Below are positions 8,367-59,942 of a stretch of DNA of 64,000 nucleotides, piece by piece. The notes below the pieces were generated by a model that ran no database searches, had not been told where the DNA came from, and worked only from the letters and a program-made list of their open reading frames with translations. The position numbers and the translations under genes were made by a program. The stretch spans positions 236,009 to 300,008 of the forward strand of contig JAFQXM010000007.1 of the NCBI GenBank assembly GCA_017406955.1. The letters are read 5' to 3'. How positions within the stretch are numbered: the stretch's first letter is position 1; each line of letters starts with the position of its first letter. This stretch comes from Bacilli bacterium. GTDB taxonomy: Bacteria > Bacillota_I > Bacilli_A > RF39 > UBA660.

Positions 8367-8383
8367 TAAACTTTATAAAAATT

Positions 8384-8411: not shown

Positions 8412-8440
8412 GTTATAATTAAGTAAAAGGAGGTGATACT

Positions 8441-22839: not shown

Positions 22840-22869
22840 ACGAGCCGATTTTGAGAGAGGTTGTTTGCA

Positions 22870-24212: not shown

Positions 24213-24255
24213 TTGAAAGGCCTCCTTTTTCTTTAATTTAATTATAGTGTAAAAT

Positions 24256-24271
24256 TGTTGCAAATGCAACA
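24256..24271. promoter_or_regulatory. perfect 7-2-7 palindrome TGTTGCA-AA-TGCAACA (candidate Crp-family operator)
   Basis: Read directly; lies between the divergent regulator gene and nrdD, about 41-48 bp upstream of a plausible nrdD transcription start. Confidence 0.45.
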
Positions 24272-28550: not shown

Positions 28551-28590
28551 ATATATAATAATTATTAGATAGTTGATAGAAGGTGAACAA

Positions 28591-29820
28591 ATGAATTTTG
28601 TACAAATAAAAGAAGAAGAATATAGAAAGTTTTGGGAGGATCATCCATTAAAAACATTCTTATCATCCAAAGAAATAGCTAAGTTAAGAGAAAAATCAGG
28701 ATGGAAATCTTACTTTGTAGGGTTAAAAGAAAAAAACAAATTAAAAGCTGCTGCCATGCTTTTATCTCATAAAAGACACTTTGGTAAAAATGAGTTCTAT
28801 TCCCCAAGAGGAGTCTTAGTAGATTATAAAGATGAAAAAGTATTTAAACAATTCTTAGAAGAAATAAAAAAATTTGTAAAAGAAAATAATGGTTATGTGT
28901 TTAGAATGGATCCATATATAATTTACAAGGAAAGAGATATAGATGGAAATGTTGTAAAAGATGGAGAAGATAATAGTGATGTAGTTAATTTCTTAAAAGA
29001 ATTTGGTTTTAAAAAGATTAAGACAGAAGATGAAGAACAAGTATCTTGGATGTTTTCATTAGGATTAGAAGGTAAAGATGAAAAAGAGATTCTAAAAGAA
29101 ATGAAACCTAATACTAGAAATACTATTAGAAAAGCAGAAAAAATAGGGATAACTATTAAAGAATTAAAGTATGATGAACTAGACAGGTTTCAAAAGATTA
29201 TGGAAGAAACTGGTGAGAGAAAAAGTTTCTCAGTAAGGGATATATCATATTATCAAAATATGTATAAATTGTTTTCTGATAAAGGAGAGGTTAAATACTT
29301 TATAACTGAATTAAATTTGAAAGAATATATTAAAAAACTAAAAGAAGAGAAAAAAGTTAAAGAAGATAAGTATAATAATTTAAGTGATGCAAAATATAAT
29401 GATGGTCAAAAGAAAGGCCTTACTAATGAAATAAATGCAATAGATAGAAGAATTAAAGATGCAGAAGATATAAGAAATGATAAGAAGAATGATATAATAA
29501 CTCTATCAGGATCTATGTTTATAATTATAAAACCTGAAATAATATATTTATCTAGTGGTAATTATTCTGAATTTATGAAGTTTAATTCTCAATATTTACT
29601 ACAATGGATGATGATTAAATATGGTATAGAACATGGATTTAAAAAACATAATTTTTATGGGATACCTGCTAATATAAATACTCATCCTAAAGATTATGGA
29701 ATATATGAATTTAAAAGAGGATTTAATGGTTATGTAGAAGAGCTTATAGGAGAATTTGAGCTCCCAATAACATATCATTATAAATTATTAAAACTAATAC
29801 ATAAGATAAAAAATCATTAG
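28591..29820 (+). CDS. FemAB-family peptidoglycan aminoacyltransferase (FemX/MurM-like)
   Basis: N-terminus MNFVQIKEEEYRKFWEDHPLKTFLSS..GW, central coiled-coil insert, C-terminal NFYGI...YEFKRGFNG; typical FemAB layout and size. Confidence 0.75.
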   Translation: MNFVQIKEEEYRKFWEDHPLKTFLSSKEIAKLREKSGWKSYFVGLKEKNKLKAAAMLLSHKRHFGKNEFYSPRGVLVDYKDEKVFKQFLEEIKKFVKENNGYVFRMDPYIIYKERDIDGNVVKDGEDNSDVVNFLKEFGFKKIKTEDEEQVSWMFSLGLEGKDEKEILKEMKPNTRNTIRKAEKIGITIKELKYDELDRFQKIMEETGERKSFSVRDISYYQNMYKLFSDKGEVKYFITELNLKEYIKKLKEEKKVKEDKYNNLSDAKYNDGQKKGLTNEINAIDRRIKDAEDIRNDKKNDIITLSGSMFIIIKPEIIYLSSGNYSEFMKFNSQYLLQWMMIKYGIEHGFKKHNFYGIPANINTHPKDYGIYEFKRGFNGYVEELIGEFELPITYHYKLLKLIHKIKNH

Positions 29821-31048: not shown

Positions 31049-31131
31049 TGTTTTGTATTTGTGTTATAATTAAATAGTTGTTTAATGATAAATTGTATAT
31101 AGATATCATAGTATTAAAAGTGGAGGTATAT

Positions 31132-32892: not shown

Positions 32893-35044
32893 ACCTGGAT
32901 CAATGAATGGAAATAGCGAAAAATCTAAGGACTTTAAAGGTTCAATGGTTAAAATCTTTAATAGTTTAAATAGATGGAAATATATTTTAATAATAGCTTT
33001 ATTATTAGCTTGTCTATCTTCAGTATTTTCTATAGTAGCTCCTAATAAATTATCTGATTTAACAGATGTTATTACTAAAGGCATTAGACCAGATACTAAG
33101 AAATTAGGTACTATTGGTAAAAAGATTAGTAGTAATTTTAAAGAGGATAAATTAAAGAGTAAAATTCCTACTATTATGATGGATAAAAGTATTAGTTATG
33201 AAGATTTAAATAAATTTAATGAAATAATGACTAAGATGTCTACTATAAAAGATAAGAAAAAAGCATCTAAATTAATAGTAGATATACCAGATAGTATATT
33301 AATAAAATTAATGGATGATATATATGTAGATAATATAAAGATTAGTAGTAAAGATCAAGTTAAGTTTTTAAAATTAATGAGTAGTATAGATAAATCTAAA
33401 GTTAATAATAAAACATTAAAGAAATTTGATAAACTACCTAAATCAATCTATAACTTAGTTAAACCTAAAATAGATATGTCTAAAGTAAAGAGTATTTCTT
33501 TATTACTTGCGATTCTTTATATACTTAGTTCTGTATTTGCATATGTACAGGCTTACCTAATGGCAACAGTTTCTAATAATTTTGCTAAAAGATTAAGAAC
33601 AGATATATCTAATAAAATAAATAAGTTGCCATTAAAATATTTTGATAAACATGAAACTGGAGATATTCTATCTAGAGTTACTAATGATGTAGATTCTATT
33701 GGTATGAATATGAATCAAAGTTTAGGAACCTTAATATCTAATGTAACTTTATTCTTAGGTGCAGTTATTATGATGTTTGTAACTGATTGGCATTTAGCTT
33801 TAACTGCAATACTTTCTAGTATTATAGGATTTATGTTTATGGGATTATTACTTTCTAAATCACAAAAATACTTTAATAGAAGACAAAAAGAGTTAGGGGA
33901 CTTAAATGGTTATATAGAAGAGGTGTATTCAGGACATAATGTTGTTAAAGCTTATAATGGAGATAAACTAGCTAAAGAAGAATTTAGAAAAATAAATAAC
34001 GAATTATATCGTTCTAGCAAGACTAGTCAATTCTTATCAGGTATAATGCAACCAATAATGATGTTTGTTGGAAACTTTGGATATGTTGCAGTCTGTGTAG
34101 TAGGAGCTTTACTTACTATGAATAATATAATTACATTTGGTGTAATAGTTGCCTTTATGATTTATATTAGATTATTTACTAATCCACTTTCTCAAATAGC
34201 TCAAGCTATGACAGGATTACAATCAACTGCAGCTGCAGCAGAACGTGTATTTGAATTTTTAGATGAAGAAGAAATGACTAGAGAGAAAAAATCTAAATTA
34301 TTAGATAAAAGCAAAGTAAAGGGAAGTATTGAATTTAAAAATGTTAAATTTGGATATAATCCTGATAGAGTAATTATAAAAGATTTTAATGCAAAAGCTA
34401 AACCTGGACAAAAAGTTGCCATAGTTGGACCTACAGGGGCAGGTAAAACTACAATGGTAAATTTACTTATGAAGTTTTATGAAATAAATTCTGGAGATAT
34501 TATAATAGATGGAGTTAATACAAAAGATTTATCTAGAGAAGAAATACATGATTTATTTATAATGGTATTACAAGATACTTGGTTATTTGATGGTACAGTA
34601 GGAGAAAACATTAGATATAACAAGAAAAATGCAAGTGATGAAGAAGTATGGAAAGCATGTAAGACTGTGGGGATAGATCACTTTATTAAAACGTTACCTG
34701 GAGGATTAAATTCTAAAGTTACTGATAATGATACAATTAGTCAAGGACAAAAACAGTTACTTACAATTGCTCGTGGTATGATAAAAGATGCACCATTCTT
34801 AATATTAGATGAAGCTACTTCTAATGTAGATACAAGAACAGAAGAGTTAGTACAAAAAGCTATGGATAAATTAACTGAAGGTAGAACTAGTTTTATAATA
34901 GCTCATAGATTATCTACTATTAAAAATGCAGATTTAATATTAGTAATGAATGAAGGTAATATAATAGAACAAGGAACACATGATGAATTAATAAAACAAA
35001 ATGGTTTCTATGCAGATTTATATAATTCACAATTTGAATTATAA
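32885..35044 (+). CDS. ABC exporter permease/ATPase subunit (consensus-site partner)
   Basis: Walker A GPTGAGKTT, Walker B FLILDEATS, atypical signature ISQGQKQ. About 140-aa insertion between TM1 and TM2. Overlaps the upstream gene by 8 nt. Confidence 0.85.
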   Translation: MPRPGSMNGNSEKSKDFKGSMVKIFNSLNRWKYILIIALLLACLSSVFSIVAPNKLSDLTDVITKGIRPDTKKLGTIGKKISSNFKEDKLKSKIPTIMMDKSISYEDLNKFNEIMTKMSTIKDKKKASKLIVDIPDSILIKLMDDIYVDNIKISSKDQVKFLKLMSSIDKSKVNNKTLKKFDKLPKSIYNLVKPKIDMSKVKSISLLLAILYILSSVFAYVQAYLMATVSNNFAKRLRTDISNKINKLPLKYFDKHETGDILSRVTNDVDSIGMNMNQSLGTLISNVTLFLGAVIMMFVTDWHLALTAILSSIIGFMFMGLLLSKSQKYFNRRQKELGDLNGYIEEVYSGHNVVKAYNGDKLAKEEFRKINNELYRSSKTSQFLSGIMQPIMMFVGNFGYVAVCVVGALLTMNNIITFGVIVAFMIYIRLFTNPLSQIAQAMTGLQSTAAAAERVFEFLDEEEMTREKKSKLLDKSKVKGSIEFKNVKFGYNPDRVIIKDFNAKAKPGQKVAIVGPTGAGKTTMVNLLMKFYEINSGDIIIDGVNTKDLSREEIHDLFIMVLQDTWLFDGTVGENIRYNKKNASDEEVWKACKTVGIDHFIKTLPGGLNSKVTDNDTISQGQKQLLTIARGMIKDAPFLILDEATSNVDTRTEELVQKAMDKLTEGRTSFIIAHRLSTIKNADLILVMNEGNIIEQGTHDELIKQNGFYADLYNSQFEL

Positions 35045-36375: not shown

Positions 36376-36402
36376 AAAAACATATTTTAAAATATGTTTT
36401 TT
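36375..36402. terminator. bidirectional terminator between convergent genes
   Basis: Perfect palindrome AAACATATTTTAAAATATGTTT flanked by an A-run and a T-run. Confidence 0.7.
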
Positions 36403-37093
36403 ATTTTATCTTATTTAACAATTGTTTTAAGAATTGTACTGATACTTTAGAACGTTCTTCTACAAAGTCATCAAAATTTATATGATTATTAGCTTCTTTA
36501 TTAGGGGAGTCTGATATGGATCTAATTACTAAGAATGGAATATTAGATAAATAACAAGTTTGCGCAATAGCTGCTCCTTCCATTTCTACACATAAAGCAT
36601 TAAATTTATTATTTATTTTTTCTCCCATTGCTAGTTCAGTTACAAATATATCTCCAGATGCAATAGTACCTAAATGTACTTTGCTATCTATTTTAATATC
36701 TTTAGCTAATTTAACTAAATAAGGGTCACAATCCATATAAACACCTACATTAGGTATATGGCCTCTTTTATGATCAAAGATTTTTAAATCAAAGTCATGT
36801 TGAACAAGCTTTTCTCCAACAACAACATCATATATATTAACATATTTACTAACACTACCTGCAACACCAATATTTATAATACAATCCATTTCTAATTTAT
36901 CAATAAGTATTTGCGCACATCTAGCAGCATTAACTTTACCAACACCACATTGTACTAAGATACATGTCTTATCCTTATATTTACATTCATAAAAGTCTAA
37001 ATCAAATATTTTAAATTCATTAATAACTTCAAATTCTTTTAAAGCAGCATTTAATTCTTCTTTCATTGCGACTATTAAACCAATTCTATTCAT
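36401..37093 (-). CDS. mtnN: 5'-methylthioadenosine/S-adenosylhomocysteine nucleosidase
   Basis: IGLIVAMKEE, GVGKVNAA, VEMEGAAIAQ, RSISD motifs. Confidence 0.85.
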   Translation of the reverse strand: MNRIGLIVAMKEELNAALKEFEVINEFKIFDLDFYECKYKDKTCILVQCGVGKVNAARCAQILIDKLEMDCIINIGVAGSVSKYVNIYDVVVGEKLVQHDFDLKIFDHKRGHIPNVGVYMDCDPYLVKLAKDIKIDSKVHLGTIASGDIFVTELAMGEKINNKFNALCVEMEGAAIAQTCYLSNIPFLVIRSISDSPNKEANNHINFDDFVEERSKVSVQFLKQLLNKIK

Positions 37094-38034: not shown

Positions 38035-38108
38035 TGGAGCGGATGAGGAGAATCGAACTCCCGTAGTTAGCTTGGAAGGCTAAGGTTCTACCATTAAACT
38101 ACATCCGC
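38035..38108 (-). tRNA. tRNA-Gly (anticodon UCC), CCA encoded
   Basis: Reverse complement reads GCGGATGTAGTTTAATGGTAGAACCTTAGCCTTCCAAGCTAACTACGGGAGTTCGATTCTCCTCATCCGCTCCA. It folds as a cloverleaf: 7-bp acceptor stem, anticodon stem TTAGC/GCTAA with loop CTTCCAA, T-arm GGGAG-TTCGATT-CTCCT. Confidence 0.9.
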
Positions 38109-43481: not shown

Positions 43482-43539
43482 ACTTATTTTTTTTAAAACT
43501 ATTTGTAGTATAATATATGTATTAATATAGGTGATTATA

Positions 43540-45042
43540 ATGATAAAAAATTTAAATATAAGAAGAAAGAAGAAATTTTTTAAAGGTGCTATCTTCGGAC
43601 TAGTATTAACCGCAATAGGTGGTACAGGTGTATATAAATGGAAGGATAATGAAGACAAAGTCGTTTTAAATGCTAAAGACGATACTACAATTCATCAATT
43701 AGCTAAAAAGTTAAACTATGATGAAGATGAGTTAAGAGATTTAAATGATGATATTGAAAATGGTATTAGAAGAGGACAAGAATTTACCATTAGATTAAGT
43801 GATTTAAAGAAAACAGACTATAAAGATTATAAAATAAAGAAGAAAGATACTTTATCTAAAATATCTGCTAAATTTGGTATTAATACAGATTCTTTAGAGA
43901 AATTTGATGATAGATTAGAAAGTGATGAAGAGTTAAGTAAACATATTGGAGAAAAAGTATCTTTATTTAAAAGAAATGAACCAAAAATTAGAACTGTTAA
44001 ATATGTAGTTAAAAGTGGAGATAATTTAATAGGTATTGTTAATAATATTAACAAATATTTAGATAAGAAAGTATCCCTAGAAAGTGTTTTAGAACAAAAT
44101 AAATTAAAGTCTGGTAGTGTAATATATCCAAATCAAAAATTAAAAATAACTGTTATGGCTACTAAACATGAAGTTAAACAAATAAAAAAACATAATAATA
44201 AGAAAATAGTATCCAAAAATTTAAATGTTATTAAAGGTAAAGATGAAATAGAAAAGAAATATGGTAAATTACGTGGTATAGATATTAGTTCTCATAATGA
44301 AGTAGATTGGGAGAAGTTAAATAAGTCGGGAGATATTGATTTTGTTATTTTAAGACTATTTGATGGATATAATATGGATTATAATGAAGAGTCAAAAGAT
44401 GGGACATTAGGTAGATTAAATAAAATAGATTCTAAATTTTTTAAAAATGCAGAAATGTGTAAAAAATATAATATTCCATTTGGTATATATACATATACAA
44501 GAGCTACCACAGAAAAACAAGCTGAAATAGAAGCTAATAAAGTTGTTAATATTTTATCAAAAGCTGATATAAGACCAACTTATCCAATATATTATGATGT
44601 TGAGTCTCAAGCAAGTGAACCATTAAAAAATAAGAAAGGAAAACTTGTCTCATCAGTAGATTATATTAGAAATAATCCTGATCAAATAATTGCTAACTTT
44701 AAAGCTTATGCTGATGTATTAGAATCAAATAATTATTATTGTGGACTTTATACTAATAATTCTGCTATTAATAATATAGATCCAACAGGAGATAAACTAA
44801 AAGAATATACTATTTGGTATTCTAGATATACAGGATATGAAAATTCATTTTCTGATAATGTTGTTATGAAGGATAATTATAAAGGAAATATAGGAATGTA
44901 TCAATTTACATCACAAGGTAGAGTAAAAGGTGTAAAGGGATATGTAGATTGTAATTATTGTAAAATTGATTATAGTAAAATTATTAAGAAATTAGGTATG
45001 AATAAACCTATAAAAAAAGAAGAAGAAAAAACAAAACATTAA
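43540..45042 (+). CDS. membrane-anchored LysM-repeat GH25 muramidase (lysozyme)
   Basis: TM helix, LysM-like repeats (YKIKKKDTLSKISAKFG; YVVKSGDNLIGIVN), GH25 catalytic domain (GIDISSHNEVDWEKL...DFVILR...YTY). Confidence 0.8.
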   Translation: MIKNLNIRRKKKFFKGAIFGLVLTAIGGTGVYKWKDNEDKVVLNAKDDTTIHQLAKKLNYDEDELRDLNDDIENGIRRGQEFTIRLSDLKKTDYKDYKIKKKDTLSKISAKFGINTDSLEKFDDRLESDEELSKHIGEKVSLFKRNEPKIRTVKYVVKSGDNLIGIVNNINKYLDKKVSLESVLEQNKLKSGSVIYPNQKLKITVMATKHEVKQIKKHNNKKIVSKNLNVIKGKDEIEKKYGKLRGIDISSHNEVDWEKLNKSGDIDFVILRLFDGYNMDYNEESKDGTLGRLNKIDSKFFKNAEMCKKYNIPFGIYTYTRATTEKQAEIEANKVVNILSKADIRPTYPIYYDVESQASEPLKNKKGKLVSSVDYIRNNPDQIIANFKAYADVLESNNYYCGLYTNNSAINNIDPTGDKLKEYTIWYSRYTGYENSFSDNVVMKDNYKGNIGMYQFTSQGRVKGVKGYVDCNYCKIDYSKIIKKLGMNKPIKKEEEKTKH

Positions 45043-48556: not shown

Positions 48557-49412
48557 TAAATATTTATCAGAAGAATTAGATCTTTCTCGTAGTAAGATTC
48601 AAAGACTTATTAAAGATGAATTAGTCTTAGTAAATGATAAAGTTATTAGTAATAATTATAAAGTTAAAGATAAAGATATTATAGAAGTTAAAGATGAATT
48701 GGATTTTGATATCAATATAGAGCCTGAGGATATAGATATAGATGTAGTATATGAAGACGATGATTTATTAGTTATTAATAAAGAAAGTGGTATGGTAGTT
48801 CATCCTGCACCTGGTCATTATTCTCATACTTTAGTAAATGCATTACTTTATAAATTTAATATTGAAAGTAAAGATAAAATAAGACCTGGTATAGTACATA
48901 GATTAGATAAAGATACTAGTGGATTAATGTTAGTTGCGAAGAATGAAAAGACTCATGAGTACTTAAGTGAAATGATTTCTAAAAAAGAAGTTGATCGTCA
49001 TTATTTAGCTATTGTAGATGGAGTAATTACTCATGATACAGGTACAATAGATGCACCTATTGGAAGAGATATAAATAATAGACAAAAGATGGCTGTTACT
49101 GATATTAATTCTAAAGAGGCTATTACTAATTTTAAAGTATTAGAAAGATTTGATAATAATACATTACTGGAGTGTATTTTAGAGACAGGTAGAACTCATC
49201 AAATAAGAGTACATTTATCTTATATAAATCATCCTGTTAATAATGACCCTCTATATGGAAGAGGTAAAGCTACTTCTTTTGGACAAATGTTACATTCTAA
49301 AAGTATAAAATTTATTCATCCAATAACAAAAAAAGAATTATTTTTTGAAGTAGATCCTCCAAAAGAGTTTACAGAAAAACTAGAAAATTTAAGAACAGAT
49401 ACAACCAATTAG
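48516..49412 (+). CDS. rluD: RluA/RluD-family 23S rRNA pseudouridine synthase
   Basis: S4 domain N-terminus, catalytic HRLDKDTSGLML, GRTHQIRVH. Confidence 0.9.
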   Translation: MKIKVEVEKKERVDKYLSEELDLSRSKIQRLIKDELVLVNDKVISNNYKVKDKDIIEVKDELDFDINIEPEDIDIDVVYEDDDLLVINKESGMVVHPAPGHYSHTLVNALLYKFNIESKDKIRPGIVHRLDKDTSGLMLVAKNEKTHEYLSEMISKKEVDRHYLAIVDGVITHDTGTIDAPIGRDINNRQKMAVTDINSKEAITNFKVLERFDNNTLLECILETGRTHQIRVHLSYINHPVNNDPLYGRGKATSFGQMLHSKSIKFIHPITKKELFFEVDPPKEFTEKLENLRTDTTN

Positions 49413-49424
49413 GTTGTTTTTTTA
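49401..49424 (+). terminator. rho-independent terminator
   Basis: ACAACC-aatta-GGTTGT then TTTTTTT. Confidence 0.65.
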
Positions 49425-49513
49425 TAAATATAAAAAATAAGTAGAAAAATGGCATATTTTTAATTACTATTTTCTTTAATTATGTTATAATTTTAAATAG
49501 GAGAGTGTGTTTT

Positions 49514-52500
49514 ATGAAGAAGATGATGAAAAAATTTACAAACAGTTTTGATAATATTACTAAATACTACAACTTCTTGATAACTAAAACAAAAAAACAT
49601 GAATATGTTGGCATTGTCAATGAGTGGTTAATAGATAACTATTATTTACTTGTAGAACACAAAAATGAATTATTGCGTACTAAAAACAAATTTAAAAAAA
49701 GTAGTAAAAATCTTAATGAGCATTACTATTATTTAAGAAATATAGTTCATAAAAAATATTACAATGTAGATTTTAAATATTTAGTAGAAGAATTAAAAAA
49801 ATATCAAAAAGATAATAATGAAGTATATACATATAAAGAATTAAGAATAATTATTCCATTATTAATTATTATTTATACAGAAAAACTTAATAAAATATGT
49901 ATAGAAGAATATAAAAAATTCTCAGATAAAGAAAAAATAGAATCTATTATTAATAAGTCAGATAGATTATCTTTAAAATCATTTATAGATGATAGTTTTG
50001 ATGTTAAAAATAATATTAATTATATATATGAATTAAATAATCAATTATATAAAGTAGAAAACAATAATAAAATATTTAAAGAATTAAATGAATATTTAGA
50101 AAGTAATGATATAAGTATTAAAGGTATTATTAATGAGGAATTACAAAATAAAATAGATAATAACTTAGTTATTTCTAATATATTTAATAATTTTAAAGAA
50201 TTCTTTGAAATAAATGAAGAAGATTTATTCTCTAAAGTATCAGAGACTGAAAAATTATTCTTAAAAGATTCTGTTTATAAAAAGATGACTGATGAATCTA
50301 AAAAAATGTATAGAGAAAAATTATTAGTCTTAGCTAAAAAACATAGAAAAGGAGAATATCACTATTTAAAGAATATTTTTGATAGTAAAGAACATATTGG
50401 TTATAAACTATTTAAAGAACAAAAGAATACCCTAAGAACTATATCTTATATTTTCTTGTTATTTGTACTTACTACTTTAGTATCAGGATTTTTATCTTTA
50501 TATTTTATTAAATGGAAAGTATTAGGATTTATAATCTTATTTATACCAGTAAGTCAATTAATAGTTCAAATAGTTAATGAAATATTAATAAATAAAGTAA
50601 GTATTAAAGAAATACCTAAATTAGATTTTTCTAAAGGTATTCCTGAAGATGAAAGAACTATGGTAGTAATACCTACTATTATTTCTGATACTGAAAAAGT
50701 AAAAGAAATATTTGATGTATTGGAATCTTTCTATCTTGTTAATAAAACAGATAATTTATATTTTACATTACTTGGAGATGTAAAAGCTAGTAATAAAAAG
50801 AACTTAAAAATAGATTCAGAAATATCTAAATATGGTAAGAAATATGCAGATAGTTTAAATAAAAAATATAAAAAAGATATTTTCTATTTCATATATAGAA
50901 AACGTATTTGGAATGCTAAAGAAAATAGTTATTTAGGATACGAAAGAAAAAGAGGAGCTTTACTTCAATTTAATCAAATACTATTAAATCAAGAAATTGA
51001 TGAAGATAAATATTTTAATGTAAATACTCTTAGTAATAATAAATTAAATATTAAATATGTTATTACATTAGATTCAGATACTAAACTATTACTTAATTCA
51101 GCTATTAACTTAGTAGGAGCTATGGCACATCCAATGAATAAACCAATTTATAATAGTGAAGGTACTAAAGTTATAAAAGGTTATGGTATCATGCAGCCTC
51201 GTGTTAATGTTGATATAGAGTCTACTAATCAAAGTTTATATAGTCAAATATTTGCTGGTATTGGAGGATTTGATACATACTCAGCTATTATGCCTAATGT
51301 CTATCAAGACTCTTTCTATGAAGGAAGTTTTGTAGGTAAAGGAATATATGATATAAGAGCAGTTGATAAAGTTTTAAGTAATGCGTTCCCAGATAACTTA
51401 ATTTTATCTCATGATTTATTAGAAGGTAATTATTTAAGATGTGGTTATGTTTCTGATGTAGAATTAATTGGAGACTTTCCAGCTAAATTTTTAGTAGATG
51501 TATCTCGTCATCATAGATGGGCTAGAGGAGATGTCCAAATAATTGGCTGGCTTAAAAGAAAAGTTTTAAATAAAGACAATAAGAAAGTTAAAAATCCAAT
51601 TAATTTATTAGGAAAATATAAAATATTAGATAATATATTAAGAATGTTCTTAAACCCAATGTTATTATTAATACTTATATTAGCATTCACTCTTGATAAA
51701 GAAACTTCTTATTTATGGTTTTTATTAGTAGTAATGGAAATTGCTATATCAATAATATTCTTCTTAAGAAGTAAGATTAATAAAAAGAATAAAGATGTAA
51801 AAGAAGTATATTATAAGAAATTTTATATAGGTGGAAAAAGTATAATATCAAGAGCATATATAGTATTTTCAACTATTCCATTCTATACAAAATTATATAT
51901 GGATGCTTTCTTTAGAACTTTATATAGGTTATTAATAAGTCATAAAAACTTACTTAATTGGACAACGGCAGAAGAAGTAGAAAAAACAGTTGATGGAAGC
52001 CTACTTAATTATATAAAAGTATTTACAATTAACTTTATAGTAGCAATCTTATTTATAATAATAGGATTTGTAACAGTAAATCCTTTAGCGTATATTGTAG
52101 CTTTTATCTTTATAACAGGTCCGTTTGTAACACATCATGTATCTAAAGAACTAGATCATAGTAACTTAGATCTAAAGACTAAAGATATAGATAATTTAAG
52201 ACATTTAGCTTATAGAACATGGAAATATTTTGATGATAACTTATCAAAAGAAAATAACTTCCTAATATCTGATAATTATCAAGAAAATAGAGAAGAAAAA
52301 TTTGATCATAGAACATCACCAACCGCAATAGGATTCTCTCTAACATCAGTAATTAGTGCTTATGAATTAGATTTCATTGACAAAAAGAAAACATTATATT
52401 TATTAGAAAATATCTTAAAATCAATTAATTCATTAAAAAAATGGCATGGGCATTTATATAATTGGTATAATATAAAAACTAAAAAACCATTATATCCATA

Positions 52501-55500
52501 CTTTGTCTCAACAGTAGATTCTGGAAACTTAATTGCGTCAATAGTAGTTGTTAGAGAGTTTTTAAATAAGAACGATGAAACTAAATTAGTAGAGTTATGT
52601 GATAAATTAATAAAGAACGCTAACTTTAAAAAATTATATACTAAAAAGAATGTCTTTAGTATTGGATATGATGAAAATGAAGGTAAATTATCTGAATATA
52701 ACTATAATAAATTCGCTAGTGAATCACGCCTTACTAGTTATTTAGCTATTAGTTTAGGAGAAGTTCCTAGTAAACATTGGTTCTGTTTAGATAAATCTTT
52801 GGCTCTTCATAAGGGTCATAAAGGATTAATCTCTTGGAGTGGAACATCATTTGAATATTATATGCCATTATTATTTATGAGAAATTATCCTAATACATTA
52901 TTAGATGAAGCATATCATTTTGCTTATAATTGCCAAAAAGAATATATGCATTCAGTAGATTCTAGATTGCCATGGGGAATTTCAGAAGCAGCTTATAATG
53001 AATTAGATAATTCACAAAACTATAAATATAGGTCATTTTCAACTCCATATTTAAAAGCTAAAGAAGATAAAGAAAACAGAATAGTACTATCACCATATGC
53101 TTCATTAATCGCAATTGATTTATTCCCAAAAGAAGTATATGAAAATGTATTAAAATTCAATAAACTAGATATGTATTCTAAGTATGGTTATTATGAGTCA
53201 TATGACTATGATAATAAAGGTGTAGTAAAAGCTTACTTTGCCCATCATCAAGGAATGTCTTTACTTGGAATAACTAATTATTTAAAGAAAGAAGTAATAA
53301 AAGATTTATTCCATTCTAATGTTAATATTAGAACTTTTGAATTACTATTAAAAGAAAAAGTACAAATAAAAACAAGTATTGATATGAAAATGTTAGATTA
53401 TAAAAAATATAATTATAACAAAGAAGCAATTGAAAATGATATCAGAGTATATAATTATATTTCTTACTTACCAGAGATGACAGTTTTATCTAATAAAAAA
53501 TATTCACTTATGATGAATGATAGAGGAAATAGTTTCTCAAGGTATAGAACATTACAACTAAACAGATATCGTAAAGTAACAGAACAAGATTATGGTATGT
53601 TTATGTTTATTAAAGATGTAAAAGATAATAAAGTATGGTCTAATACATTTTCACCAATAAATATAAAGCCAGAAAAATATGAAGTAGTATTCGCATCAGA
53701 TAAAATAAAATATTTAAGAAGAGATGATGAAATAACTACAAAAACAGAAGTAGTTGTATGTAAAAATCATCATGCAGAAATTAGAAAAATATCATTTAAA
53801 AATGATACAGATGTTGATAAAGAATTAGAATTAACTACTTATACAGAACCTATTCTTTCTGAGAATATGGATGATATAAGTCATAGAGTATTTAATAGTA
53901 TGTTTGTCTCAACTGAATACGATGAAAAAACTAATAGTTTGATTGCTAAGAGAAAAGAAAGAAAAGATACTAGTCTTAATAGTTATATGGTTACTAGATT
54001 AATAGTTAATGAACCATTAGAAAAATATACATATGAAACTGAAAGAAGTAATTTTATAGGTAGAAATAATACTATTAATAATCCTAAAGCTATTGATGAA
54101 GAATTAACTAATTATTCTGGAGATAATCTAGATCCAGTATTATCTATAAGAAATAAAATTATGGTTCCAGCTAATGAATCAGTTAGTGTTTATGTATTAG
54201 TTGGATTTGGTAGAAGTAAGGAACAAATATTTGATATTGTAAATAGTTATAATGATAAAAATTCATTAGATAATGAATTTGAAATTTCCACTTTAATGAA
54301 TATTATTGATAATAAAAACATGAATATTTCTGGTAGTGATATGAAAATTTATAATATTATGTTAAATTATTTATTCCAAACTACTAGTAAATCTGTTACA
54401 GAAGAACATATGAATCTACTTAGAACTAATAGATTAGGACAATCTGAATTATGGAAATTTGGTATTAGTGGAGATAGACCGATAATTACAGTAGATATTA
54501 AAGATATCAGAGATATAAACTTTATAAGAGATATTTTAAAAGCATTTGAATATTATAAAAATAAATCTATTTTTGTAGATGTAGTAATTATAAATAATGA
54601 GTTAGGTCAATTTCATGATTTAGTAGAAAAAGAAATAGATGATGAATTATATAGAATTTATACATTAAATAGTTTCTATAATACTCCAGGAGAAATATTA
54701 GTATTAGATGGATCTAATATAACTCCAGAAGATCAAAATCTATTAGATATCATTTCTAGATTAAGATTTGTTATAGATAATCATATATCTTTAGAAGAAG
54801 CAGTTTATAGCCTGCAAAGTCATAATAGAATTAGTGACTATCCAACTTATCCTTATGAAGATAATCTACCATATCAAAATAATGAGAAACTATTATTTGA
54901 TAATGGATATGGTGGATTTAAAAATAATGGTAAGGAGTATGTTATTTATAATAAAAATACTCCAACTCCATGGAGTAATATAATAGCTAATAAAACATTT
55001 GGTACTATAGTTACTAATAATGGTTGTGGATACACATATGCTTATAATTCTGGAGAATTTAAAATAACTTCATGGACTAATGATATTGTTAGTAATGATA
55101 AGAGTGAAGGATTTAAATTTGATGGTAAAATGTTTGACCCTGAAAAATGTACTCATGGATTTGGTTATTCTATTCTAGAAAGTGAAACTAATGATTTAAA
55201 ACATGAAGTTACAGAATTTGTTGCGGTAGAAGATAATGTTAAGATTTATTTAATGAAACTTAAAAATAAAACCAATAAAGAATTAAAAACTAATATTGAG
55301 TTTTGGATGAATCCAATTTTTGGTAATTTCGAAGAAAAAACTTCAAGACATATACTAACAGAATTTATGGGTAAAGATAATTATCTAAAGATGAGGAATG
55401 TTTATCACAATAGTTACAATAATGTTAATGTGTTTATGTCAGCTTCAGAAAAAATAAATACAGCTATAGTAGAGAAGATGTTAATAAAAAGTATAGCTTT

Positions 55501-57148
55501 TGATGTTTCTTTAAAACCTAATGAAGAAAAAGATTTAGTCTTTGTCTTAGGATGTAGTTTAAGTGATGAAGAAAATATTAAATTAATGAATAAGTATACT
55601 AATATAGAAGAAGTAAAAGAAGAGCTTAATAATGTTAAGTCTTATTGGGATAGTAAACTAAATATTATCACAGTAGATACTCCTGATAATAGTTTAAATA
55701 TAGTACTTAATGGTTGGTATTTATATCAAACTTTATCATCACGTATCATGGCTAAAGCTGGTTTTTACCAAATAAGTGGAGCTTTTGGTTATAGAGATCA
55801 ATTACAAGATGCCATGAATATAGCTATGGTTAATAAAGAATACACAAAAGAACAAATACTTAATAATGCTTCTCATCAATTTGTAGAAGGTGATGTTCTA
55901 CACTGGTGGCATGAAAAGAATCGTTTTGGACTTAGAAGTAAATATAAAGATGATTATTTATGGTTAGTTTACGCAACATGCAACTACATAGAAAGAACAA
56001 ATGATTATAGTATTTTAGATGAAAAAGTACCATATATTATTGGAGAAACTCTAAGTGAAAAAGAACATGAAAGAGGAATGGTATTTAGTTATTCTGAAGA
56101 AAAAGTTCCTTTATTAGAACACTGTTTAAAATCTTTAGATGTATCAATGAATTCTCTAGGTTCTCATAAAATACCACTTATGGGTGGAGGAGACTGGAAT
56201 GACGGAATGAATAAAGTTGGTATCGAAGGAAAAGGTGAAAGTGTTTGGCTTGGATTCTTCTTATATAGAGTTATTGATTTATTTGTTAATGTAGTTAAAA
56301 ATTATGATGATAAGTTTAATATTGATAAATATCTAAAGTTTAATAAAAAACTAAAAGATAATCTAAATAAGAATACTTGGGATGGAGACTATTATTTAAG
56401 GGCTTTCTTCGATAATGGAGATAAACTAGGTAGTCATGAAAATAAAGAATGTAAAATAGACTTGATTTCACAAAGTTTTTCAATACTTAGTGATGTGGCA
56501 CCAAATGATAAAATTCCAAAAGTAATTAATTCTGTAGAAGAATCATTAGTAGATAATAATAATAAAATTATTAAACTACTAACTCCGGCATTTGCGAAAT
56601 CATTAAATAATCCAGGATATATTATGAACTATCCAAAAGGAATACGTGAAAATGGAGGACAATATACACATTCAGTTTCATGGTATTTAATGGCTTTAAT
56701 AAAAGAAGGTTATTTTGATAGAGCATATAATTACTATCAAATGATAAATCCAATTAACAGAACTCTTAATGATAAATATGTTGATAAATACAAGGTAGAG
56801 CCTTATGTTATCGCAGCCGATATTTATTCAGCAGAAAACTTTAGTGGTAGAGGAGGTTGGACTTGGTATACAGGTTCAGCAGGTTGGTTCTATAAAGTAG
56901 GAATTGAAGATATTTTAGGTATTAAAATAAAAGGTAATAAATTAGAACTTAATCCAGGAATACCTTCTAATTGGAAAGAATATAAAGCTACATATAAGTA
57001 TTTAAACACTACATATAGTATTAAAGTAATAAATACAACAGAAGAAAAATTACTATTAGATGGATCACTTATTAAAGATAAATTTATACCTTTAATAGAT
57101 GATAATAGTACTCATAATATAGAATTACATATAAATACTAATAAATAG
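49514..57148 (+). CDS. cyclic beta-1,2-glucan synthase-like protein (GT84 + cyclization domain + GH94 phosphorylase)
   Basis: AGGAG RBS then ATG at 49514 (GTG 49505 is an alternative). N-terminal EWLIDNYYLL. GT84 motifs: YERKRGALLQFN, VITLDSDT, GYGIMQPRV, SHDLLEG, RHHRWARGD. At least 6 TM helices. Middle domain: HRTSPTAIGF, VSTVDSGNL, SWSGTSFEYYMP, PWGISEAAYN, AHHQGMSLLG. GH94-type C-terminus: YRDQLQD, GGGDWNDG, ENGGQYTH. Confidence 0.85.
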   Translation: MKKMMKKFTNSFDNITKYYNFLITKTKKHEYVGIVNEWLIDNYYLLVEHKNELLRTKNKFKKSSKNLNEHYYYLRNIVHKKYYNVDFKYLVEELKKYQKDNNEVYTYKELRIIIPLLIIIYTEKLNKICIEEYKKFSDKEKIESIINKSDRLSLKSFIDDSFDVKNNINYIYELNNQLYKVENNNKIFKELNEYLESNDISIKGIINEELQNKIDNNLVISNIFNNFKEFFEINEEDLFSKVSETEKLFLKDSVYKKMTDESKKMYREKLLVLAKKHRKGEYHYLKNIFDSKEHIGYKLFKEQKNTLRTISYIFLLFVLTTLVSGFLSLYFIKWKVLGFIILFIPVSQLIVQIVNEILINKVSIKEIPKLDFSKGIPEDERTMVVIPTIISDTEKVKEIFDVLESFYLVNKTDNLYFTLLGDVKASNKKNLKIDSEISKYGKKYADSLNKKYKKDIFYFIYRKRIWNAKENSYLGYERKRGALLQFNQILLNQEIDEDKYFNVNTLSNNKLNIKYVITLDSDTKLLLNSAINLVGAMAHPMNKPIYNSEGTKVIKGYGIMQPRVNVDIESTNQSLYSQIFAGIGGFDTYSAIMPNVYQDSFYEGSFVGKGIYDIRAVDKVLSNAFPDNLILSHDLLEGNYLRCGYVSDVELIGDFPAKFLVDVSRHHRWARGDVQIIGWLKRKVLNKDNKKVKNPINLLGKYKILDNILRMFLNPMLLLILILAFTLDKETSYLWFLLVVMEIAISIIFFLRSKINKKNKDVKEVYYKKFYIGGKSIISRAYIVFSTIPFYTKLYMDAFFRTLYRLLISHKNLLNWTTAEEVEKTVDGSLLNYIKVFTINFIVAILFIIIGFVTVNPLAYIVAFIFITGPFVTHHVSKELDHSNLDLKTKDIDNLRHLAYRTWKYFDDNLSKENNFLISDNYQENREEKFDHRTSPTAIGFSLTSVISAYELDFIDKKKTLYLLENILKSINSLKKWHGHLYNWYNIKTKKPLYPYFVSTVDSGNLIASIVVVREFLNKNDETKLVELCDKLIKNANFKKLYTKKNVFSIGYDENEGKLSEYNYNKFASESRLTSYLAISLGEVPSKHWFCLDKSLALHKGHKGLISWSGTSFEYYMPLLFMRNYPNTLLDEAYHFAYNCQKEYMHSVDSRLPWGISEAAYNELDNSQNYKYRSFSTPYLKAKEDKENRIVLSPYASLIAIDLFPKEVYENVLKFNKLDMYSKYGYYESYDYDNKGVVKAYFAHHQGMSLLGITNYLKKEVIKDLFHSNVNIRTFELLLKEKVQIKTSIDMKMLDYKKYNYNKEAIENDIRVYNYISYLPEMTVLSNKKYSLMMNDRGNSFSRYRTLQLNRYRKVTEQDYGMFMFIKDVKDNKVWSNTFSPINIKPEKYEVVFASDKIKYLRRDDEITTKTEVVVCKNHHAEIRKISFKNDTDVDKELELTTYTEPILSENMDDISHRVFNSMFVSTEYDEKTNSLIAKRKERKDTSLNSYMVTRLIVNEPLEKYTYETERSNFIGRNNTINNPKAIDEELTNYSGDNLDPVLSIRNKIMVPANESVSVYVLVGFGRSKEQIFDIVNSYNDKNSLDNEFEISTLMNIIDNKNMNISGSDMKIYNIMLNYLFQTTSKSVTEEHMNLLRTNRLGQSELWKFGISGDRPIITVDIKDIRDINFIRDILKAFEYYKNKSIFVDVVIINNELGQFHDLVEKEIDDELYRIYTLNSFYNTPGEILVLDGSNITPEDQNLLDIISRLRFVIDNHISLEEAVYSLQSHNRISDYPTYPYEDNLPYQNNEKLLFDNGYGGFKNNGKEYVIYNKNTPTPWSNIIANKTFGTIVTNNGCGYTYAYNSGEFKITSWTNDIVSNDKSEGFKFDGKMFDPEKCTHGFGYSILESETNDLKHEVTEFVAVEDNVKIYLMKLKNKTNKELKTNIEFWMNPIFGNFEEKTSRHILTEFMGKDNYLKMRNVYHNSYNNVNVFMSASEKINTAIVEKMLIKSIAFDVSLKPNEEKDLVFVLGCSLSDEENIKLMNKYTNIEEVKEELNNVKSYWDSKLNIITVDTPDNSLNIVLNGWYLYQTLSSRIMAKAGFYQISGAFGYRDQLQDAMNIAMVNKEYTKEQILNNASHQFVEGDVLHWWHEKNRFGLRSKYKDDYLWLVYATCNYIERTNDYSILDEKVPYIIGETLSEKEHERGMVFSYSEEKVPLLEHCLKSLDVSMNSLGSHKIPLMGGGDWNDGMNKVGIEGKGESVWLGFFLYRVIDLFVNVVKNYDDKFNIDKYLKFNKKLKDNLNKNTWDGDYYLRAFFDNGDKLGSHENKECKIDLISQSFSILSDVAPNDKIPKVINSVEESLVDNNNKIIKLLTPAFAKSLNNPGYIMNYPKGIRENGGQYTHSVSWYLMALIKEGYFDRAYNYYQMINPINRTLNDKYVDKYKVEPYVIAADIYSAENFSGRGGWTWYTGSAGWFYKVGIEDILGIKIKGNKLELNPGIPSNWKEYKATYKYLNTTYSIKVINTTEEKLLLDGSLIKDKFIPLIDDNSTHNIELHINTNK

Positions 57149-57159
57149 TGATAATAATA

Positions 57160-57196
57160 AAGAATACTCTTTATTTTGAGAGTATTCTTTTTTTAA
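57160..57196 (+). terminator. rho-independent terminator after the glucan synthase gene
   Basis: 11-bp stem AAGAATACTCT/AGAGTATTCTT then TTTTTT. Confidence 0.8.
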
Positions 57197-57302
57197 TTAA
57201 TACTTAACAAAACAAGTAAAAAATGTTATTATGATAATATACGATAATAAGCATCTGTTGTAGTATTTCCAAATTAAGATTTTAGAGTATTTAGGGGAGC
57301 TT

Positions 57303-59942
57303 ATGCATAGGAAAGAGAAAAAGGCAATTTTAGGTGATAGAAATAGTGGAGTATTTCACTATATATTAGCTTTTATCATAAATGCTATTATCCATTTATG
57401 CATTTTTGTGTTGGGTGATTTTAAGTATTATGATATTGTTCACTTTGTAATATCATATATTTTCTTTATGTATCCAGTTACCTTCGTTATTGATGTTATA
57501 TGGTCATTAAGGCCATCTGTAAGTAGAATACTTAATTCAGAGTATAAAATGAATAGAAAGTATTATATGAATATTCCAAAAAAAGATTACGATATATCTA
57601 AATTCAAAGAAGTAACAGTTAGTATTCCAGTATATTTAGAAGAAAATAGTGTTATTTTTCAAACAATTACAGATAGTTTAGAAGCCGTTAAAGAGTATAA
57701 TAGAATAAGTGGTAAGTATTGTAATATAGTAGTATCAGATGATGGAATAGGCGCAATCTTAAAAGAGAAATGTAATAGAAGAGATATTGATAATTTAATA
57801 CTACAATATAAAAATAATAAAAGCAGTTTATCAAACGATTTAATTACAGTAGCAGAAAGAATAATTTTTTATAGAAATTATAATGTTGCTTTTGTCGCAA
57901 GACCTAAAGAAAATAGAATTGGATTATTCAAAAAAGCATCAAACTTAAACTACACACTAACACTTGGAGATGAATTAGAAAAAGGTAAAAGCTTGGAAGA
58001 ACTTACAAAAAAAGATGGAGAATATGAAGGAGGATATGCTGAAGGAGATATAAAAACTTACGAAATTATATTACTTTTAGATAAAGACTCTGGTGTTAAT
58101 AAAAACATTATAGAGGCTATTATGCCAGAATTTATAGATAATGAAAAATTATCTTATGTTCAATGTGCTACTAACGCAATTAATATGGATGATAATTTCT
58201 TTGCTAATACAATGGGAGTTCATGTTAATAATTTGTTTCATAACATTTGGCCATGTAATGCTTTAAAGGGATTTTTTGCTCCACTTGTTGGACATAACGC
58301 ATTTCTTAGAAAAAGCGCTTTAAGAGAGATTGGATATTGGGATTCAACTAAAGTATCAGAAGATTATGATGCTGCTATAAAACTATATTCACAAGGATAC
58401 TATGGTAAATATGCTCAGATAAAAGGATTAGAATTTACTGAATATGCAAGTAGAACTTATACAGAAGAAGCAGGAAAACAATATAGATATACATATGGAC
58501 TATTTGAAATGATGTTTGATGGAACAATTAAATATGGAAAAGCTAGAAAAGGTGACATTTTCTACATGGTTATATACTTCTTGTCAAAAGTATATATAGT
58601 AACTACAATCCCATATGCTTTATTTGTTACTTATGCAGGAGATATAAATATCATGTGGGCAGGATTTATTTTGTGTCAAGCCGCCTTTATGTTCCTCCCA
58701 GTACTTAGATATATAATATTACGGGGAAGATTTAAAAAAGAATATTTACTTAGTCTACCAAAATCAATAATTTTATCTATATCATATTTAGGATATTCAT
58801 ATTCATCATTATTAGGGGCAATTAAATATGTATTAAATAAATTTAAAAAAGCAAACAAAACATTCCCAGCTTCATCAGTTGGTACCCTAAATTATTGCTT
58901 TAGTGAAGGAGTAATCATTCTAAATGATTATATAACTAATAATATGAGCTTTTTGATAATTGCCGTATTATGTGCAGATAGAATTGTAAATATTATGACT
59001 AGACATTATGCATTATTCTTAACAAAAGCAACTTGTTCATATATCTTATTAGGTATAGTAATTATGCCAATTATATTAACTCCACATCTTTATCATGTTA
59101 AATTTAATAATAAAGGTGTATTTAAAAAAGTTAATATGTTTCCATTAATTGCTTTAGTATCTATACTAATATTTATACCAATAATTAGTTATAACTATTA
59201 TAAAACTCAAGATTATGGAGATACTTTCTTAAATAATACAAACTCAATATCATTAATGGAACCAGCTAATGATTTCCCATATATGATTAAAGATATAGAG
59301 CCAGGAAAAACAAGAGAAGTACACTTTGAAGTTAAAAACTTTAAAGGAAATAAAAAACTAAAGAATAAAACAAATTATTCAATCGCAATTGGTCAAGGCA
59401 AATTACCATTTAAATATAAATTAAAATGTATGAATGCAGATGGTAAATGTATTAGAGGAAATGACTTAAAGCCAAATACATATTATTCAGATGGAGTAAT
59501 GTCTAATGAAGGAAAATCATATCATAACTATACTTTATATGTAACTTGGGAATCTAAACATAGTAAATATAAAATTATAAGAAACATAAAAAATGCTTTA
59601 GAAATGTTTAAATATAATTTATTCACAAGAGCTAGAATTAATATTAAAGTTAGAACTAATAATTATATATATGATGTATCTAATATTAAAAATGAAGAAT
59701 ATATAAGAAATAGTGATAACTTAGTAGAATTAACTATTAAAGCTGATAAAAGATTATTTAATGGTATTAATCTATTTATAGATGGTGATGTAGTAGATTC
59801 TAATAACTATAGTGTTTTCAGTAATAAAATTACTTTGAAGAAAAATTACTTAAATAAATTAGAAGATGGTAAACATAAAGTAAAAATTATTTTACCAAAT
59901 AATGGACAAGCAAATACAAGTTTTACTATCACAAAAGAATAA
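57303..59942 (+). CDS. GT2-family processive membrane glycan synthase (OpgH/cellulose-synthase-like) with C-terminal extracytoplasmic domain
   Basis: N-terminal TM helices. GT2 motifs: VSIPVYLEENS, VVSDDG, KASNLN, LLLDKDS, VGHNAFLRKSAL, VSEDYD, GKQYRYTYG. At least 5 further TM helices. About 240-aa non-hydrophobic C-terminal region with an Ig/X2-like pattern. Confidence 0.75.
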   Translation: MHRKEKKAILGDRNSGVFHYILAFIINAIIHLCIFVLGDFKYYDIVHFVISYIFFMYPVTFVIDVIWSLRPSVSRILNSEYKMNRKYYMNIPKKDYDISKFKEVTVSIPVYLEENSVIFQTITDSLEAVKEYNRISGKYCNIVVSDDGIGAILKEKCNRRDIDNLILQYKNNKSSLSNDLITVAERIIFYRNYNVAFVARPKENRIGLFKKASNLNYTLTLGDELEKGKSLEELTKKDGEYEGGYAEGDIKTYEIILLLDKDSGVNKNIIEAIMPEFIDNEKLSYVQCATNAINMDDNFFANTMGVHVNNLFHNIWPCNALKGFFAPLVGHNAFLRKSALREIGYWDSTKVSEDYDAAIKLYSQGYYGKYAQIKGLEFTEYASRTYTEEAGKQYRYTYGLFEMMFDGTIKYGKARKGDIFYMVIYFLSKVYIVTTIPYALFVTYAGDINIMWAGFILCQAAFMFLPVLRYIILRGRFKKEYLLSLPKSIILSISYLGYSYSSLLGAIKYVLNKFKKANKTFPASSVGTLNYCFSEGVIILNDYITNNMSFLIIAVLCADRIVNIMTRHYALFLTKATCSYILLGIVIMPIILTPHLYHVKFNNKGVFKKVNMFPLIALVSILIFIPIISYNYYKTQDYGDTFLNNTNSISLMEPANDFPYMIKDIEPGKTREVHFEVKNFKGNKKLKNKTNYSIAIGQGKLPFKYKLKCMNADGKCIRGNDLKPNTYYSDGVMSNEGKSYHNYTLYVTWESKHSKYKIIRNIKNALEMFKYNLFTRARINIKVRTNNYIYDVSNIKNEEYIRNSDNLVELTIKADKRLFNGINLFIDGDVVDSNNYSVFSNKITLKKNYLNKLEDGKHKVKIILPNNGQANTSFTITKE

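Follow-up and report, generated by a model that had tools for sequence, protein, structure and literature searches.

The 64,000-nucleotide stretch of DNA analyzed here (the window) covers positions 236,009 to 300,008 of contig JAFQXM010000007.1 in assembly GCA_017406955.1, a metagenome-assembled genome (MAG) of an uncultured Bacilli bacterium from the ruminant gut, and it contains a gene, cgs, predicted to encode a full-length synthase of cyclic beta-1,2-glucan (Cgs). In Brucella, Agrobacterium, and rhizobia, cyclic beta-1,2-glucans are periplasmic osmoprotectants and host-modulating molecules. A preliminary description of the window had placed an uninterrupted 7.6-kb open reading frame (ORF) at 49514 to 57148, and that is what lies there: a single plus-strand ORF extends from 49505 to 57148, with an ATG at 49514 behind the ribosome-binding site GGAGAG (49500 to 49505, plus strand), a stop codon ending at 57148, and a product of 2544 amino acids. 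The coding sequence is supported by the ORF listing, by homology, and by a public gene call (P0001) that is also 2544 amino acids long and 100% identical to the product of ATG 49514. Since the ORF, the ATG preceded by a ribosome-binding site, and the public call agree, these boundaries are exact. An open frame of 2544 codons at 25% G+C, where stop codons are frequent, cannot have arisen by chance.

Upstream, a terminator-like hairpin (49401 to 49417, plus strand; 6-bp stem followed by a T run) at the end of an rluD-like gene sets cgs apart from dnaE-lspA-rluD, and a strong bidirectional terminator-like hairpin (57159 to 57190, plus strand; 13-bp stem and T run) directly follows the cgs stop. 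Because such hairpins bracket the gene, cgs appears to be monocistronic in this genome. The plus-strand sequence TGTTATAAT at 49483 to 49491, 22 nucleotides 5' of the ATG, resembles a promoter and is probably an extended -10 element. It was missing from a consensus promoter scan because it has no good -35; the scan is uninformative in such AT-rich DNA (104 sites observed versus 114 expected). No regulatory RNA turned up around cgs in an Rfam scan.

Profile and structure-database searches recovered, at full length, the three-module architecture that had been proposed: an N-terminal domain (NTD), transmembrane (TM) helices, a GT84 glycosyltransferase, further TM helices, a GH189 cyclization (CY) domain, and a GH94-type phosphorylase. 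End-to-end homology was detected to the cryo-electron microscopy structure of Agrobacterium tumefaciens Cgs/ChvB (PDB 8RF0 and 8RF9; Sedzicki et al. 2024, PMC10901819), with an E value of 0 and 1295 bits; the alignment to 8RF0 is colinear across residues 35 to 2491, with NTD, GT84, CY, and GH94 in that order in one polypeptide. The full protein also matched the CY domain of the Thermoanaerobacter italicus cyclic glucan synthase (CGS), the founder of GH189 (PDB 8WY1; Tanaka et al. 2024, PMC10834661; E = 1e-92), as well as GH94 phosphorylases, and GH189 is indeed the family to which the preliminary description had assigned the Cgs cyclization domain. Pfam matches to PF10091 (residues 1068 to 1269), PF06165 (three stretches), and PF17167 (2044 to 2469, E = 6e-110) were all far above the cutoffs. 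The GT84 segment matched no glycosyltransferase family in Pfam-A, and no NCBIfam model matched the protein, so that its naming rests on Pfam and structure-database homology.

All parts of the protein are encoded on the plus strand. The N-terminal scaffold domain (residues 1 to 310; window positions 49514 to 50443) aligns from its first residues with many family representatives, although in pairwise comparison it matches the Agrobacterium NTD only weakly (6.7 bits); it carries the motif EWLIDNYYL (37 to 45). TM hairpin 1 (TM1, 313 to 332; TM2, 336 to 357; 50450 to 50584) leads into the GT84 domain (about 360 to 700; 50591 to 51613), placed by alignment to 8RF0, with the motifs YERKRGALLQFN (476 to 487), VITLDSDT (516 to 523), GYGIMQPRV (556 to 564), SHDLLEG (632 to 638), and RHHRWARGD (665 to 673). 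TM hairpins 2 and 3 (TM3, 705 to 726; TM4, 733 to 751; TM5, 836 to 855; TM6, about 859 to 875; 51626 to 52138) follow, with a predicted K/R-rich cytoplasmic loop between them. The CY domain (about 890 to 1290; 52181 to 53383), placed by alignment to 8WY1, contains HRTSPTAIGF (932 to 941), VSTVDSGNL (998 to 1006), SWSGTSFEYYMP (1107 to 1118), PWGISEAAYN (1153 to 1162), and AHHQGMSLLG (1243 to 1252). The GH94-type glucan phosphorylase half (about 1300 to 2544; 53411 to 57145), placed by Pfam and structure-database alignment, comprises the supersandwich in three stretches (the best at 1320 to 1564) and the catalytic domain at 2044 to 2469, with YRDQLQD (2093 to 2099), GGGDWNDG (2224 to 2231), and ENGGQYTH (2379 to 2386). 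All 14 motifs quoted in the preliminary description are therefore present in the order in which it gave them. The TM segments were assigned by hydropathy, which predicts three hairpins (313 to 357, 705 to 751, and 836 to 875) with short outer loops and with K/R-rich flanks facing the catalytic domains. This predicted six-helix anchor, with every large domain in the cytoplasm, matches the Agrobacterium structure; cytoplasmic active sites would also be expected because the use of UDP (uridine diphosphate)-glucose and phosphate requires the cytoplasm.

Residue roles assigned or proposed in the two structural studies (PMC10901819 and PMC10834661), several of them by mutagenesis, were mapped onto the protein by alignment. 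In the GT84 domain, D422 corresponds to Agrobacterium D527 (UDP binding), D520/D522 to the DxD motif D624/D626, Y589 to the primer tyrosine Y694, D634 to the catalytic base D739, and R668-W669 to the RW motif R773-W774. Y589 lies within GGFDTYSA and pairs with Y694 within RGIDPYVF, and 101 of 102 family representatives have Tyr at this position. In the CY domain, S999/D1002 correspond to Agrobacterium S1101/D1104; the acid/base is E1070 (Thermoanaerobacter E1356, Agrobacterium E1300), and the supporting Glu (E1114), nucleophile (E1158), and His pair (H1244/H1245) correspond to Thermoanaerobacter E1400, E1442, and H1536/H1537, respectively. In the GH94 half, D2095 corresponds to Agrobacterium D2393 and D2230 to D2528, the catalytic acid of the GDWND motif; the remaining key residues, R2094 (which with D2095 forms the phosphate-site Arg-Asp pair), D2227, and the phosphate-site H2386, are present as well. 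A substituted DxD motif or GH94 aspartate had been named beforehand as grounds for doubting the assignment, and neither is found, since D520/D522 and D2230 are kept. In total, 19 of the 19 catalytic or key positions checked are present; none of them varies among 40 sampled relatives (65 to 100% identity), and at least 99 of 102 diverse representatives of the family keep them.

The closest characterized system is that of Agrobacterium Cgs/ChvB, with Brucella Cgs and Sinorhizobium NdvB. The window protein shares with the Agrobacterium enzyme the module order and the six TM helices, and every GT84, CY, and GH94 residue named in the structure paper aligns identically. It differs in being about 40% identical in the catalytic cores, in its length (2544 versus about 2830 amino acids), in an NTD that is hardly alignable pairwise, and in a CY domain shorter by about 130 to 145 amino acids of inserted helices. 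The setting differs as well: the present host is a monoderm without a periplasm that probably forms spores, no chvA/cgt or cgm lies near the gene, and relatives have an operon of cgs and pgi. The T. italicus CY domain, likewise from a Firmicute, is the top structure-database match of the middle domain (E = 2e-98) and its top fold match; its Glu nucleophile, acid/base, supporting Glu, and His-His pair are all matched here. Identity is 41 to 47%, and 8WY1 has about 160 extra residues (chain positions 147 to 309) where the window protein has about 2. Only the isolated CY domain of T. italicus was assayed, and a later review calls the organism Gram-negative (PMC11842490).

Related but separate are the stand-alone GH94 enzymes (cellobiose and chitobiose phosphorylases and the Listeria/Lachnoclostridium 1,2-beta-oligoglucan phosphorylase; 8HO9, 1V7V, and 5H3Z), to which the C-terminal 550 amino acids align across the catalytic domain (E = 1e-64 to 1e-8) with conservation of the GDWND catalytic Asp and the phosphate-site RD and H. 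Those are soluble catabolic proteins of 800 to 1100 amino acids, whereas the GH94 domain here is the tail of a membrane synthase. The GH144/GH162 endo-beta-1,2-glucanases (5GZH and 6IMU) share the (alpha/alpha)6 barrel and, at about 420 amino acids, the compact size of the CY domain; they are inverting hydrolases without the Glu nucleophile and His pair, both of which the window protein keeps. With the catalytic features of GT84, GH189, and GH94 all in place, the predicted protein passes as a Cgs. What it lacks are the extra helices, a descriptive feature, and the linked exporter (Cgt/ChvA/NdvA) and modifier (Cgm) of the proteobacterial system, which are not defining.

The host markers named in the preliminary description were recovered with Pfam: CotE (4787 to 5383, E = 1e-47), a FemAB-family peptidyltransferase (28573 to 29820, E = 3e-102), a PASTA Ser/Thr kinase (15491 to 17248; with its PP2C phosphatase partner, 14751 to 17248), and a LysM-GH25 protein (43531 to 45042). 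Because these genes and an anaerobic ribonucleotide reductase (NrdD) are encoded in the window, the host is probably an anaerobic, peptidoglycan-walled, spore-forming Firmicute. The earlier wording, an endospore-forming Gram-positive, can now be narrowed to uncultured gut Bacilli of small genome size that are probably RF39-like. The uncultured RF39 order has been described as highly genome reduced and auxotrophic (PMC6784871), and it is predicted to retain peptidoglycan and sporulation (PMC10868615), predictions that CotE, the PP2C/PASTA kinase pair, and FemAB fit.

The Cgs sequences closest to that of the window (65 to 82% identity, more than 100 clusters) come from MAGs named Bacilli bacterium. 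At least 418 stretches in species-representative genomes encode confirmed Cgs relatives, and taxon, habitat, and G+C content are described here for the best 80 of these. Nearly all are MAGs labeled Bacilli, Tenericutes, Mycoplasmatota, Mollicutes, Erysipelotrichaceae, "Ca. Faecimonas" (GTDB genus CAG-877, order RF39), or "Ca. Onthousia," sampled from the guts of humans, goats, sheep, deer, rabbits, chickens, and mice. Their G+C content is 23 to 38% and stays below 35% in all except one (L070). One relative (L040) carries cgs on a closed chromosome of 1.31 Mb.

The window gene is native in composition and matches housekeeping genes of the window (24.0% G+C; G+C at third codon positions, 0.119; correlation of codon usage with that of ten window genes, r = 0.96). 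In a neighbor-joining tree of 102 full-length proteins, the window protein and those of MAGs labeled Bacilli or Tenericutes form one deep clade (45 to 82% identity); the tree has no support values and is largely unlabeled, and it was used only for the monophyly of this clade. The next branch holds MAGs labeled Bacteroidales (34% G+C), and clostridial sequences sit elsewhere. The Agrobacterium and Thermoanaerobacter enzymes were placed by BLAST of alignment fragments, which gives approximate neighbors only, none above 64% identity. Native composition, a deep monophyletic clade, and only about 40% identity to the Agrobacterium enzyme are all consistent with long vertical residence, and the data fit a gene that is old and vertically inherited within this clade of gut Bacilli, rather than a recent proteobacterial import. 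An ancient transfer of cgs between phyla is possible. The Bacteroidales-labeled neighbors (proteins P0124 and P0128; loci L085 and L086), which have a Cas9 gene, glnS, and rpoC in their vicinity, hint either that cgs once passed between gut phyla long ago or that these records, too, are mislabeled. Nine further contigs (L005, L006, L028, L041, L050, L052, L059, L073, and L080) are titled "uncultured Muribaculaceae bacterium" but have 25 to 32% G+C and Bacilli-type synteny (dnaE-lspA-rluD-cgs or cgs-pgi), and these labels are almost certainly wrong.

The surroundings of cgs were surveyed by calling and clustering ORFs within 6 kb of the gene in 83 related loci. No ABC (ATP-binding cassette) exporter, acyltransferase, or succinyl or phosphoglycerol modifier family recurs in this range, and none adjoins cgs in the window, in agreement with the preliminary description, which had seen no ChvA-like exporter or Cgm-like modifier beside the gene. 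For the host genome itself, the analysis covered the window and 10 kb on either side. The recurrent neighbor is instead a Firmicutes-type glucose-6-phosphate isomerase, pgi (3IFS, E = 3e-88; NF010697). In 50 of the 75 loci with enough downstream sequence, pgi shares the strand of cgs and follows it at no more than 160 nucleotides, often overlapping the cgs stop codon; it is within 3.5 kb in 61 of the 75 (loci drawn from L002 to L084, e.g., L040:10001-18886, L035, and L038). After cgs-pgi there often follow genes for PAP2 and Cof-type HAD phosphatases and rluD, and in six loci a phosphoglucomutase (PGM) gene adjoins the cgs-pgi pair. In Clostridium sp. Cult2 and Cult3 (L077, about 5500 to 10000; L084, 5587 to 9852), a pair of genes encoding a 573-amino-acid PGM and an 809-amino-acid fusion of a sugar-1-phosphate nucleotidyltransferase (GlgC/RmlA-like) with PGM ends 17 nucleotides upstream of cgs; together with cgs, these would make up a full operon leading from glucose 6-phosphate through a nucleoside diphosphate-glucose to glucan. 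No pgi is present in the 64-kb window, whose lineage moved cgs away from pgi and lost this arrangement. Since the genes coupled to cgs in relatives are pgi, pgm, and one for a nucleotidyltransferase, and not those of exporters or modifiers, the polymer seems to be connected directly with the pool of hexose phosphates.

We favor, with a probability of roughly 0.85, the reading that the window encodes an enzyme with the Cgs mechanism as predicted by homology, a long-standing resident of gut Bacilli whose glucan would stay cell associated or be released. The enzymology, argued from homology, is the secure part. The protein would be seated in the membrane by its three TM hairpins with the large domains all in the cytoplasm. 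The GT84 domain would glucosylate Tyr589 from UDP-glucose and then grow a beta-1,2 chain on it, and the GH94 half would shorten the chain by phosphorolysis, freeing glucose-1-phosphate and thereby setting its length. Intramolecular retaining transglycosylation by the GH189 domain (nucleophile E1158, acid/base E1070) would free a ring of beta-1,2-glucan and leave the primer on the tyrosine. Since the product would be a neutral ring of about 3 kDa made in the cytoplasm of a monoderm, it could not act as a periplasmic osmoticum. We favor instead a cell-associated osmoprotectant or carbon reserve, or a soluble factor released via an unlinked exporter; given the coupling to hexose-phosphate genes, the cell-associated roles are no less plausible than the classical one of an exported glucan.

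Several points weigh against this reading. Among Firmicutes Cgs proteins, assays cover only the isolated Thermoanaerobacter CY domain. The absence of the helical insert means that product size, and even cyclization itself, could differ. The window cgs is not beside pgi, so that the operon argument comes from relatives, and pgi is a housekeeping gene whose adjacency may mean shared expression and not shared function. Finally, the RF39 placement of the window organism was drawn from the Cgs tree and the names of MAGs.

Among more specific accounts, a tentative one has an unlinked transporter export the cyclic glucan, which would then act outside the cell on the epithelium or immune system of the host, on microbes nearby, or in the matrix of spores or biofilms. 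Such a role would follow the established biology of the family, for example, the effects of Brucella and Xanthomonas glucans on their hosts (PMC10901819 and PMC11842490), and it would suit a lineage that, from its record names, is strictly gut associated; by our own estimate, a glucan of about 3 kDa would cross peptidoglycan. A possible exporter exists 15 kb upstream of cgs, where a heterodimeric pair of 604 and 719 amino acids, each a fused transmembrane and nucleotide-binding domain of the TM287/288 or BmrCD type, is encoded at 31078 to 35044 (plus strand). However, these are the only ABC exporters in the window and are of a generic multidrug type; as a ChvA/Cgt-like candidate the pair was rejected, its best matches being P-glycoprotein, TM287/288, and BmrCD, with Cgt outside its 60 best structural-database matches. 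The second member of the pair has an N-terminal extension of about 190 amino acids. The survey of 83 loci, with neither an exporter family recurring beside cgs nor a succinyl or phosphoglycerol modifier seen near it, likewise speaks against dedicated export.

It is also possible, though on balance unlikely, that the glucan is an intracellular reserve or compatible solute which the same protein remobilizes, in place of glycogen or granulose. The CY domain would reopen rings by coupling, GH94 would free glucose-1-phosphate, and PGM and PGI would feed glycolysis. The frequent cgs-pgi linkage, the six loci with PGM alongside, and the PGM and GlgC-like nucleotidyltransferase/PGM fusion upstream of cgs in the two Clostridium genomes are consistent with this, as is the union of synthase and phosphorylase in one protein. 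Cyclic glucan also accumulates in the cytoplasm of Agrobacterium and rhizobial export mutants. In addition, RF39 genomes are reported to be without most carbohydrate-storage genes (PMC7301438). Against this, cyclic glucans lack a free end and are resistant to phosphorolysis, and ring reopening by GH189 is hypothetical. The GH94 activity of the Agrobacterium enzyme is dispensable, its sole effect being to tune chain length (PMC10901819). The pgi adjacency may be mere synteny, and in the window cgs is monocistronic with no pgi in the 64 kb. The fuller version of the idea, for which we see only a slim chance, would make Cgs of RF39-type gut Bacilli, which have small genomes, lack a periplasm, and reportedly lack glycogen genes, a self-contained builder and remobilizer of a cytoplasmic beta-1,2-glucan, a reserve or compatible solute that is the counterpart of clostridial granulose and is wired to glycolysis through the conserved cgs-pgi(-pgm) operon. 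Such a glucan might fuel sporulation. If true, a polymer so far known only as a Gram-negative periplasmic or secreted host-interaction factor would gain a new physiological role.

The short CY domain raises the question of an altered product, namely, a linear beta-1,2-glucan or a ring of a size other than a degree of polymerization of 17 to 25. The segment from the VDSGN motif to the acid/base Glu is 68 amino acids long here (window 52505 to 52720, residues 998 to 1070) versus 196 in Agrobacterium and about 230 in Thermoanaerobacter, so that the domain is without a helical insert of roughly 130 to 160 amino acids found in both characterized enzymes. The insert has been described as extra alpha-helices that are unique to CGSs and missing from hydrolytic beta-1,2-glucanases (PMC10834661), which lends the idea some weight. 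A predicted structure of residues 880 to 1300 is of low confidence (predicted local distance difference test score, 58.9; predicted template modeling score, 0.71; shallow alignment of 13 sequences), and the fold search made with it serves as a consistency check only. Its best matches were 8WY1 and the Agrobacterium Cgs entries, followed by the similar-sized GH144 glucanases, which the model covers over their whole length with a TM-score of about 0.65. Nevertheless, the protein keeps E1158, the retaining nucleophile, together with the His pair, and these residues set GH189 apart from inverting glucanases. The short form is common to all 110 close relatives that could be scored, and the same distance spans 68 to 293 amino acids among full-length representatives of the family; both characterized Cgs enzymes are long-insert forms. 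Since many independent clusters that have all three modules show the form with 68 to 82 amino acids, the insert would seem to be a variable decoration that the family does not require for its function, and we regard an altered product as improbable.

Recent horizontal acquisition from Proteobacteria, as a passenger gene without an adapted role, is very improbable and was rejected on composition: Firmicutes Cgs sequences are dispersed across the tree and the nearest relatives beyond the clade are labeled Bacteroidales, but composition and codon usage are native, the clade is deep and monophyletic, identity to the Agrobacterium enzyme is low, the catalytic residues are invariant, and the gene is retained in a 1.31-Mb genome.

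The enzyme family itself is well known and large, since with the N-terminal 900 residues as the query 2255 clusters (50% identity) reach E ≤ 1e-30, and homologs are very numerous in Firmicutes MAGs and already automatically annotated as cyclic beta-1,2-glucan synthetase, as is a 71%-identical protein at JGI. Of interest are the host lineage and the informative operon conserved in relatives. The linkage of cgs to pgi in relatives, the neighboring GT2 gene, and the absent helical insert had escaped the preliminary description. It had pointed out that Gram-positive homologs exist, a Thermoanaerobacter cyclization domain having been studied, and that it knew of no physiological role for them; a search of the available literature likewise found no paper that links the family to RF39-like Bacilli or gives it a role in any Firmicute. 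An intact synthase is kept across a large clade of gut Bacilli that have strongly reduced genomes and are prevalent in human, ruminant, rabbit, and chicken guts. Because the gene takes up about 0.6% of the DNA in a 1.3-Mb genome, it must pay for itself. The glucan may be an assayable candidate for the molecule by which these commensals withstand osmotic stress, keep carbon in reserve, or engage with their host, and the naturally minimal CY domain could be of use in enzymology and in the production of cyclic glucans. The identity of the enzyme family is unchanged by these results; the range of organisms in which it matters, and its possible purpose, are widened.

Gene order in the window is dnaE, lspA, rluD, cgs, a membrane GT2 glycosyltransferase, folE, a GNAT gene, and a histidine phosphatase gene, an order also found in the two nearest relatives (82% identity). 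The GT2 gene (57303 to 59942, plus strand; 879 amino acids; PF13632) has its own promoter-like site at 57204 to 57232 and adjoins cgs only in these three genomes. Its product has several TM segments, weak CelA/PgaC-like matches, and a C-terminal noncatalytic region of roughly 250 amino acids. It was considered as a truncated Cgs paralog and rejected, having no similarity to Cgs and no structural-database match. In L004, the counterpart of this GT2 gene is followed by genes for NUDIX, YfhO, and a CsbB-like GT2, a set resembling a cluster for envelope glycosylation.

Throughout the window, each 2-kb bin shows a positive GC skew and nearly all genes lie on the plus strand, a pattern typical of leading strands. 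Departing from this strand bias are a purine/uridine phosphorylase-family gene (36401 to 37093), an ORF at 23586 to 24269, and a single tRNA-Gly(UCC) gene (38035 to 38108, minus strand). Two features that are odd in a small gut Bacilli genome were also observed: a CrtO-like glycosyl-diaponeurosporenoate acyltransferase domain (22861 to 23589, plus strand; E = 3e-11) and a weak ankyrin-repeat match below the Pfam cutoff (2310 to 2987, plus strand).

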